From Escherichia coli (lineage in GTDB: Bacteria > Pseudomonadota > Gammaproteobacteria > Enterobacterales > Enterobacteriaceae), in assembly GCF_050920415.1 (NCBI RefSeq), contig NZ_CP169309.1: a stretch of 64,000 nt of DNA; one strand, 5' to 3'. Within the stretch, counting starts at the first letter, position 1. Every line of letters starts with the position of its first letter. Below are positions 3,222 through 50,136 of this stretch, in pieces. The notes below the pieces were generated by a model that was not told where the DNA came from, did no database searches, and saw only the letters and a program-made list of their open reading frames with translations. A program made the position numbers and the translations under genes.

Positions 3222-4004
3222 ATGCGCACAAGCGACGTTACGCAACTGATGGATCTGGCGCTGGGGCTGTGGTTTCCCTTCGTGCGCATTATGGCGTTTC
3301 TGCGCTATGTGCCGGTGCTGGATAACAGCGCCCTGACCGTGCGCGTGCGGATTATTTTGTCGCTGGCGCTGGCAATCATCATCACGCCGTTGATCCCCCA
3401 TCCCATTCCCCACGACCTGCTTTCGCTCAATAGCCTGATCCTGACGGTGGAGCAAATTTTATGGGGCATGTTATTCGGGCTGATTTTTCAGTTCCTGTTT
3501 CTGGCGCTACAGCTGGCCGGGCAAATTCTCTCGTTCAATATGGGGATGAGCATGGCGGTGATGAACGACCCGAGCAGCGGCGCATCGACCACCGTACTGG
3601 CGGAGCTAATCAACGTTTACGCGATCCTGCTGTTTTTTGCCATGGACGGGCATCTGCTGCTGGTGAGCGTGTTGTACAAGGGCTTCACCTACTGGCCGAT
3701 TGGCAACGCCCTGCATCCGCAAACCCTGCGCACCATCGCGCTGGCCTTTAGCTGGGTGCTGGCGTCGGCATCGCTGCTTGCGCTGCCGACCACTTTTATC
3801 ATGCTGATTGTGCAGGGCTGCTTTGGCCTGCTCAACCGCATTGCGCCGCCGCTGAATCTCTTTTCACTTGGCTTTCCCATCAACATGCTGGCAGGGCTGG
3901 TCTGTTTTGCCACCCTGCTCTACAACCTGCCGGATCACTATCTGCATCTGGCGAATTTTGTGTTGCAGCAGCTCGACGCGCTGAAAGGTCACTATGGCGG
4001 ATAG
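3222..4004 (+). CDS. lfiR: Flagellar export apparatus protein, FliR-like
   Basis: ATG at 3222 (MRTSDVTQL...), polytopic membrane protein of about 260 aa in FliR position. Confidence 0.75.
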   Translation: MRTSDVTQLMDLALGLWFPFVRIMAFLRYVPVLDNSALTVRVRIILSLALAIIITPLIPHPIPHDLLSLNSLILTVEQILWGMLFGLIFQFLFLALQLAGQILSFNMGMSMAVMNDPSSGASTTVLAELINVYAILLFFAMDGHLLLVSVLYKGFTYWPIGNALHPQTLRTIALAFSWVLASASLLALPTTFIMLIVQGCFGLLNRIAPPLNLFSLGFPINMLAGLVCFATLLYNLPDHYLHLANFVLQQLDALKGHYGG

Positions 4005-5133
4005 CAGCAGCGAAGAAAAAACAGAGAAACCTTCGGCGCAAAAGCTGCGTAAAGCGCGTGAAGAGGGACAACTGCCGCGCTCGAAGGATATGGGGCTGGC
4101 GGCGAGCCTGTTTGCGGCGTTTGTGGTGATCTCCAGCAGCTTCCCGTGGTATGCCGATTTTGTACGCGAGAGTTTTATCAGCGTGCATCAGTACGCGCAG
4201 GAGATTAATAACCCGGACGTTATCGGCCAGTTTCTGCGCCATCACCTGTTAATTCTCGGCAAGTTTATTCTCACCTTGCTGCCGATGCCCGCCGCCGCAC
4301 TGCTCTCCTCACTGGTGCCTGGCGGCTGGCTGTTCTTGCCGAAAAAAATCCTCCCGGATTTCAGCAAAATCAGTCCGTTAAAAGGCATTGGACGGCTGTT
4401 CTCCAGTGAACATCTTGCGGAAACAGGCAAGATGACGGCGAAGTCGGTGGTGGTGCTGGTGATGCTGTGGATTAGCCTGCGCAATAACTTTGCCGCCTTT
4501 CTCGGCCTGCAGGCGCTGCCGTTCAAACTGGCGATGAATGAGGGTTTGTCGCTCTACGCCAGCGTGATGCGCAACTTTGTCATCCTGTTTATTTTCTTCG
4601 CGCTTATCGACGTGCCGCTGGCGAAAGCCCTGTTCACCAAAGGGCTGAAGATGACTAAGCAGGAGCTGAAAGAAGAGTACAAAAATCAGGAGGGCAAGCC
4701 GGAAGTGAAAGCGCGTGTGCGGCGGCTGCAACGGCAGCTGGCGATGGGGCAAATCCGCAAAGTGGTGCCGAAAGCCAACGTGGTGATCACCAACCCGACC
4801 CACTACGCCGTGGCGTTGCAGTATGACCAGTCGCGCGCCGCCGCGCCGTTTGTAGTGGCAAAAGGTACCGATGAAATCGCCCTCTATATTCGTCAGGTCG
4901 CCACTGAAAATCAGGTGGAAGTGGTCGAGTTCCCGCGGCTGGCGCGCTCGGTTTACTACACCACCCAGGTGAACCAACAAATTCCGTTTCAGCTTTACCG
5001 GGCCATCGCCCACGTTCTGACCTACGTCCTGCAAATGAAACACTGGCGCGAGGGCGCACAGCCGCGCCCGGCCCTGAACAGACATATTTCCATTCCCAAA
5101 GAGGTGCTTAAACTGGATGGCGAAAACAACTAA
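3994..5133 (+). CDS. lfhB: Flagellar export switch protein, FlhB-like
   Basis: 379 aa, N-terminal TM region and FlhB-like C-terminal domain (...NPTHYAVAL...). Confidence 0.85.
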   Translation: MADSSSEEKTEKPSAQKLRKAREEGQLPRSKDMGLAASLFAAFVVISSSFPWYADFVRESFISVHQYAQEINNPDVIGQFLRHHLLILGKFILTLLPMPAAALLSSLVPGGWLFLPKKILPDFSKISPLKGIGRLFSSEHLAETGKMTAKSVVVLVMLWISLRNNFAAFLGLQALPFKLAMNEGLSLYASVMRNFVILFIFFALIDVPLAKALFTKGLKMTKQELKEEYKNQEGKPEVKARVRRLQRQLAMGQIRKVVPKANVVITNPTHYAVALQYDQSRAAAPFVVAKGTDEIALYIRQVATENQVEVVEFPRLARSVYYTTQVNQQIPFQLYRAIAHVLTYVLQMKHWREGAQPRPALNRHISIPKEVLKLDGENN

Positions 5134-7210
5134 ATCGTTCCTCGCGCTGCTGCGCGGCGGTAATCTCGGCGTACCGCTGGTGATCCTGTGTATTCTGGCG
5201 ATGGTTATTCTGCCGCTGCCACCTGCGCTGCTGGATATTCTGTTCACCTTCAACATTGTGCTGGCGGTGATGGTGCTGCTGGTGGCGGTGTCGGCGAAAC
5301 GACCGCTGGAATTCAGCCTGTTCCCGACCATTTTGCTGATCACCACCTTAATGCGCCTGACGCTCAACGTTGCTTCTACGCGCGTGGTGCTGCTGCACGG
5401 GCATCTCGGCGCGGGCGCGGCGGGTAAGGTGATTGAGTCGTTTGGTCAGGTGGTGATTGGCGGCAACTTTGTCGTCGGTTTCGTGGTGTTTATCATCCTG
5501 ATGATCATCAACTTTATCGTCGTCACCAAAGGGGCCGAGCGTATTTCCGAGGTTTCTGCCCGCTTTACCCTGGACGCGATGCCCGGCAAACAGATGGCGA
5601 TTGACGCCGATCTTAACGCCGGGTTGATCAACCAGGCGCAGGCGCAGACCCGCCGCAAAGATGTTGCCAGCGAGGCCGATTTCTACGGCGCAATGGACGG
5701 GGCATCGAAATTTGTGCGCGGGGATGCCATCGCCGGGATGATGATTCTGGCGATCAACCTGATTGGCGGCGTTTGTATCGGGATCTTCAAATACAACCTG
5801 AGCGCCAATGCCGCCTTCCAGCAGTATGTCCTGATGACCATTGGTGACGGGCTGGTAGCGCAGATCCCTTCCCTGCTGCTCTCTACCGCGGCAGCGATTA
5901 TCGTCACCCGCGTCAGCGACAACGGCGATATCGCCCATGATGTGCGCCACCAGCTGCTGGCAAGCCCGTCGGTGCTCTACACCGCCACCGGGATTATGTT
6001 CGTGCTGGCGGTGGTGCCGGGAATGCCGCACTTCCCGTTCCTGATGTTCAGCGCCCTGCTTGGTTTTACCGGCTGGCGAATGAGCAAACGCCCGCAGGCG
6101 GCGGAGGCGGAAGAGAAAAGCCTCGAAACGCTGACCCGCACCATCACCGAAACCAGCGAGCAACAGGTCAGTTGGGAAACCATTCCGCTGATCGAGCCCA
6201 TTAGTTTAAGCCTCGGTTACAAGCTGGTGGCGCTGGTGGACAAAGCGCAGGGTAATCCGCTCACCCAGCGGATTCGCGGCGTGCGGCAGGTGATTTCCGA
6301 CGGCAACGGCGTGCTGCTGCCGGAGATCCGCATTCGGGAAAATTTCCGCCTCAAGCCCAGCCAGTACGCCATTTTCATCAACGGCATTAAGGCTGATGAA
6401 GCGGATATTCCGGCGGATAAGCTGATGGCTCTGCCCTCCAGCGAAACCTACGGCGAGATTGACGGCGTGCTGGGGAACGACCCGGCGTATGGGATGCCGG
6501 TGACCTGGATTCAGCCCGCGCAGAAGGCGAAGGCGCTGAATATGGGGTATCAGGTGATCGACAGCGCCAGCGTAATTGCCACACATGTGAATAAGATTGT
6601 GCGCAGCTATATTCCTGATTTGTTTAACTATGACGATATTACTCAGCTGCATAACCGTTTGTCGTCGATGGCACCGCGCCTGGCGGAGGATTTGAGTGCG
6701 GCGCTGAATTACAGCCAGTTGCTGAAAGTGTACCGGGCACTGCTGACCGAAGGCGTTTCCCTGCGCGATATCGTCACCATCGCCACCGTGCTGGTCGCCA
6801 GTAGTACCGTCACCAAAGATCATATTCTGCTGGCGGCCGATGTGCGCCTGGCACTGCGGCGCAGCATTACCCATCCGTTCGTTCGCAAGCAGGAGCTGAC
6901 GGTGTATACGCTGAATAATGAGCTGGAAAACCTGCTGACCAACGTGGTGAATCAGGCGCAACAGGCTGGCAAAGTGATGCTCGATAGCGTGCCGGTGGAC
7001 CCGAATATGCTCAACCAGTTCCAGAACACGATGCCGCAGGTGAAGGAGCAGATGAAAGCCGCAGGTAAAGACCCGGTGCTGCTGGTGCCGCCGCAGCTGC
7101 GCCCATTGCTGGCGCGTTATGCGAAGTTGTTTGCGCCGGGGTTGCATGTGCTGTCGTATAACGAAGTGCCGGACGAGCTGGAGTTGAAGATTATGGGGGC
7201 GTTGAGTTGA
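5117..7210 (+). CDS. lfhA: Flagellar export gate protein, FlhA-like, full length
   Basis: 697 aa with FlhA-like TM region and cytoplasmic domain; uninterrupted ORF. Confidence 0.85.
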   Translation: MAKTTKSFLALLRGGNLGVPLVILCILAMVILPLPPALLDILFTFNIVLAVMVLLVAVSAKRPLEFSLFPTILLITTLMRLTLNVASTRVVLLHGHLGAGAAGKVIESFGQVVIGGNFVVGFVVFIILMIINFIVVTKGAERISEVSARFTLDAMPGKQMAIDADLNAGLINQAQAQTRRKDVASEADFYGAMDGASKFVRGDAIAGMMILAINLIGGVCIGIFKYNLSANAAFQQYVLMTIGDGLVAQIPSLLLSTAAAIIVTRVSDNGDIAHDVRHQLLASPSVLYTATGIMFVLAVVPGMPHFPFLMFSALLGFTGWRMSKRPQAAEAEEKSLETLTRTITETSEQQVSWETIPLIEPISLSLGYKLVALVDKAQGNPLTQRIRGVRQVISDGNGVLLPEIRIRENFRLKPSQYAIFINGIKADEADIPADKLMALPSSETYGEIDGVLGNDPAYGMPVTWIQPAQKAKALNMGYQVIDSASVIATHVNKIVRSYIPDLFNYDDITQLHNRLSSMAPRLAEDLSAALNYSQLLKVYRALLTEGVSLRDIVTIATVLVASSTVTKDHILLAADVRLALRRSITHPFVRKQELTVYTLNNELENLLTNVVNQAQQAGKVMLDSVPVDPNMLNQFQNTMPQVKEQMKAAGKDPVLLVPPQLRPLLARYAKLFAPGLHVLSYNEVPDELELKIMGALS

Positions 7211-7293
7211 TTGAGGATTCTTTTCCATACTTTGCAGCACCTGACACCATTAATTGACGTCACACTGCAAAGAGACTACGATGACACCATACA

Positions 7294-7593
7294 ATGACGT
7301 CATGGATTGATAGTATGATTAAGGTCAGCGCGCTAGGCTCTCGTCATAGAAAAACATTCGACGATGTAATGACGGAGCCGCCAAAATCTGGAATTAAATG
7401 GGATGATGTTGTTGCTCTCATTAAAGCGGTGGGTGGATCAATAAAAAATAACAACGGCTCCAGACGAAAATTTCAGATTGGAACGACCAAATTCAGCACA
7501 CATGAGCCGCATCCAAAGAATGTGATGGATAAAGGCGCAGTAGCAGGTCTTAAGGAGTGGTTTGTTAACTGTGTAGGGGTAGATTATGAATAA
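7294..7593 (+). CDS. HicA-like toxin (putative mRNA interferase) with N-terminal extension; alternative start ATG 7315
   Basis: ...GGSIKNNNGSRRKFQIGTTKFSTHEPHPKNVMDKGAVAGLKEW resembles the HicA/YcfA fold pattern; overlaps the downstream antitoxin-like gene by 8 bp. Confidence 0.5.
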   Translation: MTSWIDSMIKVSALGSRHRKTFDDVMTEPPKSGIKWDDVVALIKAVGGSIKNNNGSRRKFQIGTTKFSTHEPHPKNVMDKGAVAGLKEWFVNCVGVDYE

Positions 7594-7942
7594 AGCATCG
7601 AACATTATCACAATTAAAGGTCAACCAGCCGCAGTGACATTTGAAGCCGATATCAACGCATTTCGCGGCAAGTTCCTCAATGTAAACGGTTATTGTGACT
7701 TTGTAGCCACAAGTATTGAGGCATTATATCGTGAAGGCGAAAGCGCTCTGGATGAGTGGATGGCGGATTGTGAAGAGGACGGTATTGCCCCTTTTCGTGA
7801 AGAAGAAGAGCAAAAACGCCTGACGCTTCGTGTGCCGCATCACATCGATTCGCGGCTGACCATCGTCGCCAGACAACATTCCATTTCAAAAAACCAGCTC
7901 ATTATTGATGTCTTAGAACGTGAGTTTTCAGCCCAGATGTAA
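7586..7942 (+). CDS. HicB-like antitoxin with C-terminal ribbon-helix-helix DNA-binding domain
   Basis: 118 aa; C-terminal KRLTLRVPHHIDSRLTIVARQHSISKNQLIIDVLEREF is RHH-like; N-terminal part HicB-like; translationally coupled to the upstream toxin-like ORF. Confidence 0.55.
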   Translation: MNKASNIITIKGQPAAVTFEADINAFRGKFLNVNGYCDFVATSIEALYREGESALDEWMADCEEDGIAPFREEEEQKRLTLRVPHHIDSRLTIVARQHSISKNQLIIDVLEREFSAQM

Positions 7943-7974
7943 ACAGGTCGGATGCCGCGTGGCATCCGACCTGT
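7943..7974. terminator. Perfect hairpin between convergent hicB-like gene and yafL (bidirectional terminator or REP-like)
   Basis: acaggtcggatgcc-gcgt-ggcatccgacctgt inverted repeat. Confidence 0.5.
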
Positions 7975-7998
7975 TGCCAGTTCGTCAATATTACCCAT

Positions 7999-8757
7999 TT
8001 ACAAAATCGTCTCTTCCGTCAAAATCCGCCGCGCGCCTAAAAAATGATCCTGCCAGAAAGGTTCAGCTAACCGACTTACCCGAATGGTTTCCCCGGTGCG
8101 CGGCGACTCGATAAACTGACCGTCTCCCAGATACACGCCCATATGGTCGGCAATCTCGCGGCTGTGAATATGGAAAAACAGCAAATCTCCCCGGCGCAGG
8201 TCGTTATTTGCCACAATGGTTGCCCGACGGTAGTGATACATCTCATTGGCCGTGCGCGGGAGTTTCGCCTCGAGGATCTTGTTGTAGGCATAAAAAACCA
8301 ACCCGCTACAGTCGAAGCCTTGATCGGGTCGCGTGCCACCCCAGACGTATGGCTTGCCAAGCTGCTGCTCCAGACGGTGAATCGCCACTTCGGTGATATT
8401 ATGCAGGTGGTTACTGCTGAGGAAATGATTGTTTTCCGCCAGCGCCTGCCAGCGTCTGTCACTCGCCTTGAGCGGCGCAGGAAACCATTCTGGATGCTGT
8501 TTTATCTGTTCGCGGTTGTGTTGCCGCAGTGCCCTTCTGCTTTCGGCATTGCCTTCCACAATATAGCTGGCCTGCTTTTTCAGATGAATTTGGTACTGTT
8601 TTAATAAACGCGCACGGTTTTGCATCCGCTGGCGGGCGGCGTAGCTGAAAGAGATATGTGATGTGGTGGCGCTGGCGAGTAAAGGGAGCAAAACGCATAA
8701 CGAAAACACGCCTGGATGCAGAAATCTGCCGAGCAAGAACGAAGACATGAAGGACAT
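7999..8757 (-). CDS. yafL: NlpC/P60-family peptidoglycan endopeptidase lipoprotein
   Basis: Signal peptide, ...GFDCSGLVFYAY... catalytic Cys motif and ...HMGVYLGDGQFIESP... His motif; position matches K-12 yafL. Confidence 0.85.
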   Translation of the reverse strand: MSFMSSFLLGRFLHPGVFSLCVLLPLLASATTSHISFSYAARQRMQNRARLLKQYQIHLKKQASYIVEGNAESRRALRQHNREQIKQHPEWFPAPLKASDRRWQALAENNHFLSSNHLHNITEVAIHRLEQQLGKPYVWGGTRPDQGFDCSGLVFYAYNKILEAKLPRTANEMYHYRRATIVANNDLRRGDLLFFHIHSREIADHMGVYLGDGQFIESPRTGETIRVSRLAEPFWQDHFLGARRILTEETIL

Positions 8758-9048
8758 AAACCGGCTGAATGAAGGTGAGAATTTTAAAAGACCGGAGGAG
8801 TAAACGGGATTATTAATTGCTTATTTGCATATTACTATTGAGGTTTCATAATCTTAGGAAATAAATGATACATGCGCTTTTCGGACTAATGAAAACTGCC
8901 CTTGTGCTAAATTTGTAAACCCTGCGCCGACAGGCTTGCGTAAAACTCTTTTGGTGATAATGTGAGCCTTCCAAATCCAGACTATTCCGATTTGGGATCC
9001 ATTTTGCCGTCCTGGCGTGTGTAACCGTTTTATCAAGGAATAAGCAGT

Positions 9049-9789
9049 ATGCGTAAAATCGCATTAATTCTTGCGATGTTGTTGATCCCGTGCGTTTCGT
9101 TTGCCGGTTTGCTGGGCAGCAGTAGCTCGACCACGCCAGTGAGCAAAGAGTATAAGCAGCAGTTGATGGGATCCCCTGTCTACATCCAGATCTTCAAGGA
9201 AGAACGTACGCTCGATCTCTACGTCAAAATGGGCGAGCAATATCAGCTGCTCGACAGTTATAAAATCTGTAAATATTCCGGCGGCTTAGGGCCAAAACAG
9301 CGTCAGGGCGATTTCAAAAGCCCGGAAGGGTTTTATAGCGTCCAGCGTAATCAGTTAAAACCAGACAGCCGTTACTACAAAGCGATTAATATTGGTTTCC
9401 CCAATGCCTATGACCGTGCGCATGGTTATGAAGGGAAATACCTGATGATCCACGGCGATTGTGTTTCCATCGGCTGCTACGCAATGACCAATCAAGGTAT
9501 TGATGAGATCTTCCAGTTCGTTACTGGTGCGCTGGTGTTTGGTCAGCCGAGCGTGCAAGTGAGTATTTACCCGTTCCGCATGACCGACGCCAATATGAAG
9601 CGCCATAAATATTCCAACTTTAAGGACTTCTGGGAGCAACTGAAGCCGGGTTACGACTACTTTGAACAGACCCGTAAGCCACCGACCGTTTCTGTGGTCA
9701 ATGGCCGTTACGTGGTCAGCAAGCCGTTAAGCCACGAAGTTGTGCAGCCACAACTGGCATCAAACTACACGCTCCCCGAGGCAAAATAA
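9049..9789 (+). CDS. yafK: L,D-transpeptidase-fold periplasmic protein YafK
   Basis: 246 aa, signal peptide, ...[14 protein letters not shown]... YkuD-type motif. Confidence 0.85.
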
Positions 9790-49656: not shown

Positions 49657-50136
49657 ATGGCAAATCCCGTCTATCTGACACTGAACGGAGAACTTCAGGG
49701 GCTGATTTCATCCGGATGCTCGTCAATGCCGTCCATCGGTAACAAAGCCCAGATTGCACATCAGGATCAGATCATGGTGACGTCACTGTCCCATGGTCTG
49801 AGCCGGGCGCAGAATGTCAACCACCAGGAGCTGACCATCACGAAACCGGTGGACAAATCTTCCCCCCTGCTGGGCAAGGCCATTTCGGAGAATGAATGTC
49901 TGACCTGTGATTTTGTATTCTATCGCACCAACCGCTTTGGTGTTAATGAACCGTACTACAAGGTGAAACTGACTAACGCCCGGATCTCAAACATCGGCCT
50001 TACCGTTCCCCATACCATTAACGACAGCCCAGGACAGCCGGAAGAGTCTGTGTCATTTACCTATGAGAGTATCAACTGGGAGCACAGCGTCGCCGGAACC
50101 AGTGCGTACAGCCTTTGGAGTGAACGGATTTTCTAA
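49657..50136 (+). CDS. hcp: T6SS tube protein Hcp (TssD), core-operon copy
   Basis: ATG 49657 with AAGGAGA SD; 160 aa Hcp-like. Confidence 0.85.
   Translation: MANPVYLTLNGELQGLISSGCSSMPSIGNKAQIAHQDQIMVTSLSHGLSRAQNVNHQELTITKPVDKSSPLLGKAISENECLTCDFVFYRTNRFGVNEPYYKVKLTNARISNIGLTVPHTINDSPGQPEESVSFTYESINWEHSVAGTSAYSLWSERIF

Follow-up and report, generated by a model that had tools for sequence, protein, structure and literature searches.

A hicAB cassette between lfhA and yafL

We analysed a stretch of 64,000 nucleotides from Escherichia coli (contig NZ_CP169309.1), hereafter the window. The DNA around the cassette studied here is E. coli chromosome, with the gene order lfhB, lfhA, hicA, hicB, yafL, dpaA/yafK, yafJ. 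The whole hicAB cassette lies on the + strand at 7206-7999, has no homology in K-12, and fills the interval between the stop codons of lfhA and yafL. The flhA-like Flag-2 gene lfhA (5117-7210, + strand) is full-length and lies 5' of the cassette. On the 3' side, yafL (7999-8757, - strand) is convergent with hicB, and beyond it come dpaA/yafK (9049-9789, + strand) and then yafJ. When the region was compared with K-12 MG1655 using blastn, homology ended at 7205, at the end of lfhA, and restarted at 8000, at the end of yafL. K-12 carries rayT plus REP/BIME sequences between these two points, as anticipated by an earlier reading of the DNA letters (hereafter the sequence-only reading), which had placed the pair in the rayT position. 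Ton-Hoang et al. (2012, NAR) reported hicA-hicB in place of tnpAREP (rayT) and BIMEs in the yafL-fhiA interval of B1 strains such as IAI1 (PMC3333891). Theirs is the same locus as ours, and their work deals with the gene replacement only, leaving aside the operator, the start codon and the active-site substitution described below. The identity of the pair and its position in the rayT slot are already known, annotated and published.

Of 5426 complete E. coli genomes searched with megablast, 1479 have the locus, each in a single copy. RefSeq names the products 'type II toxin-antitoxin system HicA family toxin' and 'HicB family antitoxin' in every listed match, including E2348/69. The hicB segment is present in all 1479 genomes with coverage of at least 80%, and the hicA segment in 1370, where it is complete in 1369. 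There are thus 109 genomes with hicB and without hicA. At most one genome has hicA without hicB, because the 1369 whole-cassette matches cover 1369 of the 1370 hicA-positive genomes. The hicB-only genomes all belong to one allele class of 90-95% identity, so the loss of hicA may reflect a single inherited deletion event and has little weight as evidence for a toxin-antitoxin function. The 92-residue HicA differs by a single residue between E. coli alleles. Across genera, the cassette behaves as a mobile two-gene unit: Salmonella carries it on a colicin plasmid, Xenorhabdus in a prophage region, and Providencia, Brenneria and others at unrelated chromosomal sites.

One hicA-deleted allele, from E. 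coli GMF054 (L021, 1416-1847), keeps the -10 hexamer, boxes 3 and 4 of the operator described below (TGACATCA and TGACGTCA), the Shine-Dalgarno sequence and the ATG of hicA. The frame opened by this ATG runs in frame into hicB (MMKTRLLISQASN...), to which PGAP assigns a non-ATG start.

The surroundings of the cassette also differ from K-12. The toxin-antitoxin pair dinJ-yafQ, which K-12 has between yafL and dpaA/yafK, is absent at 8677-8908, where about 838 bp of K-12 sequence are swapped for 232 bp lacking K-12 homology. Hence, in this strain hicAB takes the place of rayT, and nothing takes that of dinJ-yafQ. Both Flag-2 (lateral-flagella) genes, lfhB with 379 aa and lfhA with 697 aa, are intact (3994-7210). 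The lfhA of K-12, E2348/69 and many strains with hicAB is a pseudogene truncated at the N-terminus. The identity to K-12 is low in the flanks on the side of lfhA (93.7%, 6503-7205) and of yafL (91.9%, 8000-8676) when compared with dpaA (98.7%, 8909-9300), which suggests that the cassette lies within a locally divergent stretch that has possibly recombined.

A hairpin with a perfect 14-bp stem and a 4-nt loop (ACAGGTCGGATGCC gcgt GGCATCCGACCTGT) separates the convergent genes hicB and yafL (7943-7974). Its predicted RNA fold has a free energy of -31.5 kcal/mol (z = -6.5) and is not followed by a T-run. No second copy of the hairpin exists in the window, and it is neither an obvious REP nor a repeated REP-like element. 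It is a probable bidirectional transcript end or stabiliser, and a scan for terminators called none at the locus, this hairpin included. The sequences downstream of hicB in other genera are unrelated to this one and often also hold a hairpin. The Rfam scan of 7000-8200 revealed no known RNA element, its only match being a chance snoRNA-like one (E 0.8).

Gene structure and start codon of hicA

The sequence-only reading had described two ORFs, of 99 and 118 aa, with an 8-bp overlap. Both exist on the + strand, at 7294-7593 and 7586-7942, and their overlap is ATGAATAA. The second is hicB (7586-7942, + strand, 118 aa). As for the first, the likely start is the ATG at 7315, which makes hicA (7315-7593, + strand) a gene of 92 codons, because this is the start called by PGAP and because nearly all orthologues, from Salmonella, Xenorhabdus, Providencia, Proteus, Brenneria and Photorhabdus, have 92 aa and an N-terminus MI(K). 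A weak Shine-Dalgarno sequence, GGAT (7304-7307, + strand), precedes this ATG by 7 nt. Most orthologues have (A)GGAT or GGAA at the same distance, which is not evident in Providencia L008.

We regard it as extremely improbable that the real product is the 99-residue protein initiated at the ATG at 7294, as first assumed. This frame is open, and two database entries are likewise called at 99 aa (P0001 and P0009), but such a start goes against both the PGAP call and the length and N-terminus of nearly all orthologues. Furthermore, the ATG at 7294 has no Shine-Dalgarno sequence and is about 5 nt from the predicted transcription start, whereas the ATG at 7315 has the conserved GGAT 7 nt upstream. 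In other genera, the codon at 7294 is GCG or is absent. Finally, this ATG overlaps box 4 of the operator, so that aTGACGTCA is read as Met-Thr-Ser, which explains the 99-aa call starting with MTS in P0009. The N-terminal extension previously attributed to the toxin is real, and amounts to about 28 residues, including a helix at residues 9-19, relative to HicAs of 58-66 aa; the version first given was 7 residues too long. The correction of the start codon matters to anyone cloning the toxin.

The gene hicB is immediately 3' of hicA in a one-operon layout, as expected of a module with an RHH-type HicB. Their junction (7575-7593, + strand) starts with a Shine-Dalgarno sequence, AGGGG (7575-7579), in the 3' end of hicA, and continues to ATGAATAA, where the start of hicB lies over the stop of hicA. 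The motif ATGAnTAA, which is the 8-bp overlap, is kept at 8/8 of the hicA-hicB junctions compared, and the longer AGGrG-N6-ATGAnTAA at 7/8, the locus L015 having TGGAG instead. This conservation supports translational coupling of the two genes.

A HicA fold with arginine in place of the catalytic histidine

The analysis of protein families identified Pfam PF07927 (HicA_toxin, i-E 1.7e-6) at residues 36-84 of the 99-aa ORF, the same family being precomputed for the orthologues, and matched the hicA product to phrog_8887 'toxin' (5e-20). The predicted structure, built with 17 orthologues (pLDDT 89.9), has the alpha1-beta1-beta2-beta3-alpha2 fold of HicA, with helices at 29-38 and 73-87 and strands at 42-46, 50-55 and 58-63, besides the extra helix (9-19). 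Neither HicA nor HicB had a useful match in the NCBIfam scan, or a match to PADLOC defence-system models at E<=1. Searches of PDB sequences with the single sequence or with a 17-sequence profile found no HicA match, and a 35-sequence profile reached HicA chains only marginally (E about 0.1).

Every tested HicA needs a histidine at the start of beta2, in a Gly-x-His motif: His24 in Burkholderia pseudomallei and Neisseria gonorrhoeae, His28 in Yersinia pestis HicA3, His36 in Streptococcus pneumoniae and His23 in E. coli K-12. Profile alignments to the HicAs of B. pseudomallei and Y. pestis, and to the canonical 59-aa HicA of the Xenorhabdus locus L006, put this histidine on Arg50 (GSH to GSR). 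Our protein has the Gly48 and Ser49 of the motif, and Arg50 where characterised HicAs have histidine. The sequence-only reading was right to note that the usual context of the catalytic histidine was not obvious.

The substitution is shared by many homologues. A profile search of 1.84 billion representatives retrieved 751 clusters (50% identity) at E<=0.001, mostly of 84-134 aa and matching from about residue 7. We counted residues in 142 of the best 150 subfamily matches. Position 50 is Arg in 121 and His in 3, and the neighbouring Gly48 and Ser49 are found in 139 and 140; further downstream, His63 is present in 136, and Pro65 and His66 in 138 each. The extra N-terminal helix is also conserved and basic (K/R-H/Q-x-K/R-T-L), its position 11 being His in 90 and Gln in 31 of the 142. 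Judging by these counts, this is a large and coherent HicA subfamily, whose signature is the N-terminal helix and GSR...HxPHP (G48-S49-R50 and H63-x-P65-H66-P67 in our protein). In position, His66 matches the 'PH' histidine of canonical HicAs; its gonococcal equivalent, His40, is dispensable. The other histidine, His63, is specific to the subfamily, and might form an alternative active site with Arg50. From its sequence, we file the hicA product as a HicA-fold homologue of a distinct subfamily, and not as a proven His-dependent HicA RNase. A non-exhaustive literature search found no experimental paper on this pair or on any member of the GSR subfamily; it also returned nothing on the protein pair by accession, on a TGACGTCA antitoxin operator, or on a HicA without the catalytic histidine.

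HicB and its ribbon-helix-helix tail

The second protein matches the Pfam family HicB (PF05534, E 4.1e-10, residues 60-110), a HicB-like antitoxin family of PHROGs (5e-13) and, at residues 72-115, the Arc-like repressor phrog_582 (7.5e-5). These matches agree with its initial description as a HicB-like antitoxin with an RHH tail. The model of HicB was built from 7 sequences and is of moderate confidence (pLDDT 75). It has four strands, a long helix, and two short C-terminal helices (85-97 and 102-117), with a partial RNase-H fold (beta-beta-beta-alpha) at the N-terminus. The C-terminal RHH domain is indicated by PF05534 and phrog_582, by an invariant T80-L81-R82 strand and S101-K102-N103-Q104 turn, and by the two predicted helices. 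The RHH strand is not formed in the model of the monomer, as expected for a fold that exists only in dimers. Given its gene order, with the toxin gene first, the architecture of HicB and the C-terminal RHH domain, the pair is a class 4 hicAB in the scheme of Gerdes 2024 (PMC10865869).

A predicted promoter covered by four palindromic boxes

The palindrome TGACGTCA is found exactly at 7255-7262 and 7295-7302. There are 5 copies in the 64-kb window, against 1.07 expected, and 0 of 100 shuffles reached 5. That two of them lie 40 bp from each other, immediately before a gene, is far beyond chance. Three further exact sites, at 27302-27309, 49778-49785 and 63851-63858, are each single and near chance expectation. 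The two palindromes had been noticed near the gene start by the sequence-only reading; they are real, their coordinates were one base off, and the site has four boxes, not two. A 21-bp direct repeat, TGACACCATTAATTGACGTCA (7242-7262) and TGACACCATACAATGACGTCA (7282-7302), has the perfect palindromes at its 3' ends, and a degenerate box, TGACACCA, lies 13 bp upstream of each palindrome. Since each copy of the repeat carries one degenerate and one perfect box, the site has four.

The boxes are numbered here from the most distal to the ATG at 7315. Box 1 (7242-7249, at -73 from the ATG) and box 3 (7282-7289, at -33) have the degenerate sequence TGACACCA, with only 6/8 matches to TGACGTCA. Most of the orthologous promoters examined have box 1 between -73 and -75 (-79 in Xenorhabdus and -72 in L012). 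Box 3 abuts the -10 hexamer and covers the predicted transcription start; Salmonella, Xenorhabdus, Brenneria and a metagenome locus have a perfect TGACGTCA at its position. The perfect box 2 (7255-7262, at -60) overlaps the -35 hexamer and is unchanged in all E. coli variants examined. Box 4 (7295-7302, at -20), also perfect, lies in the 5' leader, at -19 or -20 in all orthologues but Xenorhabdus (-26). The predicted promoter is of the sigma-70 type (7254-7282, + strand). It includes the -35 hexamer TTGACG (7254-7259), a spacer of 17 bp and the -10 hexamer TACGAT (7277-7282), scoring 9/12 in a consensus scan, and transcription is predicted to start near 7289. The same layout can be recognised by eye in Salmonella (TTGACG-17-TAGAAT) and Xenorhabdus (TTGACG-17-TATTAT). 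One promoter-like match in the minus strand (7611-7583) is at chance level (3 found versus 1.7 expected).

We compared this operator with those of orthologous cassettes whose surroundings are unrelated. In Salmonella the cassette is on a colicin plasmid (L003-5), in Xenorhabdus it adjoins lysis genes in a prophage region (L006-7), in Providencia it lies between hldE and ubiK-like genes (L008-9), and in Brenneria it neighbours a parDE-like pair (L010). The others come from a metagenome genome (L011), a Proteus-like contig (L012-13), and a short contig with a HicA of only 42% identity (L015). Boxes with 0-2 mismatches to TGACGTCA are found at about -73, -60, -33 and -20 from the ATG of the 92-aa protein in every orthologous promoter examined, the exceptions to this register being Xenorhabdus, where they are about 6 bp further upstream, and L012, which lacks box 3 within two mismatches. 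These promoters have their boxes in two pairs spaced by 13 bp, with the -35 hexamer TTGACG inside box 2 and a -10-like hexamer immediately ahead of box 3. At least six other genera keep this register to the start codon, with unalignable DNA on either side of the boxes and between them. Eight non-redundant orthologous promoters (8 x 100 bp) contain 28 boxes with at most one mismatch, against about 0.25 expected (shuffled promoters give about 0.03 boxes each, and the remainder of the window about 0.04 per 100 bp). Within the species, the divergent E. coli strain WAT differs in its promoter by five substitutions and one insertion, none of which touches a box or hexamer. Boxes 1 and 2 are bracketed by an 8-bp inverted repeat, CTTTGCAG/CTGCAAAG (7230-7237 and 7265-7272), which was considered as an additional operator or terminator. 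Both of its arms are altered in strain WAT, where the boxes are untouched, and it is probably non-functional.

The residues T80 and R82 of the HicB strand, which are expected to face the DNA, are invariant among the cassettes with these boxes. A distant cassette (L016/17), with a HicA 37% identical to ours, has the HicB strand KISARL where ours reads RLTLRV. Its promoter region lacks TGACGTCA and carries two GGTATCACAnAnTGATACT repeats, about 60 bp upstream of position 2001. Very probably, the cassette represses itself through the repeated palindrome. HicB is the likely binder of the boxes, because these travel with the cassette and co-vary with the RHH strand.

Discussion

In itself this is a routine locus, where a mobile toxin-antitoxin cassette has replaced rayT in part of the E. 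coli population. To what was known of it, our study adds the 92-aa start, the four-box operator with its cross-genus support, and the systematic replacement of His by Arg in the toxin subfamily. Of these three refinements, only the last could lead to something new.

We think it very likely that this is a type II hicAB toxin-antitoxin cassette, expressed as a sigma-70 bicistron with a coupled hicB, where HicB represses its own promoter by binding the four boxes with its RHH domain, and where free HicA arrests growth. The interpretation of the two ORFs as a toxin-antitoxin pair, first made from the sequence, is upheld in substance by family matches, folds and gene order. The single promoter (-35 at 7254-7259, -10 at 7277-7282) would produce a bicistronic message, from which the 92-aa HicA would be made at the ATG 7315 and HicB by coupling through the ATGAATAA overlap. 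HicB would neutralise HicA, and its RHH dimers would occupy the four 8-bp palindromic boxes, of consensus TGACGTCA. The two pairs of boxes, 13 bp apart within the pair, would lie one over the -35 and the other from the -10 to the 5' leader, and their occupation would switch the promoter off. Upon depletion of HicB, free HicA would arrest growth, and would most probably do so through an action on RNA, like characterised HicAs. The characterised RHH-type HicBs self-repress at palindromic operators (PMC11594946, PMC10865869). Those of Y. pestis and B. pseudomallei form tetramers that contain two RHH dimers, and the palindromes at which they repress their promoters overlap the -10 (PMC11594946). 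By analogy, pairs of boxes over the -35 and over the -10, the +1 and the leader would block the RNA polymerase.

It might be thought that the boxes are the site of a host regulator, MetJ-like or of the CRP family, or the remnant of an insertion, instead of the site of HicB. The MetJ box, AGACGTCT, has the central GACGTC in common with TGACGTCA, and the E. coli K-12 hicAB has a CRP-S-dependent promoter. Yet, MetJ requires directly abutting 8-bp boxes, and the spacing here is 13 bp. The boxes also move with the cassette into unrelated replicons and genera while keeping their register to the start codon, and their sequence changes when the RHH strand of HicB changes, all of which makes this explanation very unlikely. 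We find it improbable, if somewhat less so, that the module has decayed and the locus now consists of a HicB repressor and a harmless partner. Chromosomal toxin-antitoxin modules commonly decay, this toxin misses the catalytic histidine, and 109 genomes have lost hicA and kept hicB. However, the 92-aa protein is intact in 1369 genomes with a one-residue difference between E. coli alleles, and decayed genes would not keep the strongly conserved motifs seen across the 751 clusters (E<=0.001) of the subfamily. The cassette is also borne by plasmids and prophages, and at most one genome could have hicA without hicB.

The remaining alternative concerns the mechanism of the toxin and would leave the locus a toxin-antitoxin module. 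HicA may not be a His-dependent RNase: it could use another chemistry, involving Arg50 with His63 and His66, or bind RNA or the ribosome without cleavage. We see this as a real possibility, short of a probable one. All tested HicAs depend on the histidine that the alignments to solved HicAs put on Arg50, and this position is Arg in 121 of the 142 representatives and His in 3, in proteins that keep Gly48 and Ser49, have near-invariant His63, Pro65 and His66, and carry an additional conserved basic helix at the N-terminus. Yet, the HicA fold, the Gly-Ser turn and the pairing with HicB are conserved, and an activity directed at RNA remains the simplest expectation. RelE and other RNase toxins function without histidine.

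The nearest known systems are Y. pestis HicA3-HicB3 (PDB 4P78) and B. pseudomallei HicAB (PDB 6G26, 6G1N), which are RHH-type hicAB modules like ours, with identities of only 10-18%. Our HicA differs from theirs in its extra N-terminal helix and in the Arg that substitutes for the catalytic His28/His24. The two genes share 8 bp here, whereas 174 bp separate hicA3 and hicB3 in Y. pestis, and the operator has four 8-bp boxes in two pairs instead of two 15-bp inverted repeats or a single palindrome. The HicAB of E. coli K-12 (yncN-ydcQ; PDB 6HPB, 6U0I) is encoded at a different chromosomal locus. Its HicB has an HTH domain of the Xre type, not an RHH, its HicA has 58 aa with His23, and it is expressed from two promoters, of which one is CRP-Sxy-dependent. 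Finally, there is a likeness to RHH repressors of the Arc/MetJ/CopG type, in that the C-terminal 45 residues of HicB match an Arc-like PHROG and the promoter has short repeated palindromic boxes. Unlike in these repressors, the RHH is fused to a toxin-binding domain, the boxes are spaced by 13 bp and not abutting, and there is no sign of a small-molecule corepressor.

An operator of four boxes that is conserved across genera and shifts with the RHH strand is a ready system to study the specificity of RHH-DNA recognition and the stoichiometry of HicB on DNA. As for the toxin, a common E. coli HicA belongs to a widespread subfamily lacking the histidine that underlies the accepted HicA mechanism, which raises the question of a second catalytic solution on the HicA fold. 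We tentatively suggest, as a broader hypothesis that we hold rather doubtful in its entirety, that the N-terminally extended 'GSR' HicAs of 84-134 aa are a large and mechanistically distinct subfamily, with a different chemistry or specificity of RNA cleavage or with no cleavage, and that the four-box TGACGTCA operator is a portable RHH-DNA code.

Canonical and GSR-type HicAs coexist in one island, since the Xenorhabdus locus L006 (573-3125) has three toxin-antitoxin pairs side by side, adjoining phage lysis genes: a canonical 59-aa HicA (GSH) with a HicB_lk_antitox protein, a RelE-like/HTH pair, and a 92-aa GSR-type HicA with an RHH HicB. Relatives of the GSR-type HicA (about 41% identity, residues 7-83) are also found in 49 Ralstonia and 2 Burkholderia phage records, one of them annotated 'toxin'; an example is Ralstonia phage Dina (NC_055026.1, 28934-29164).
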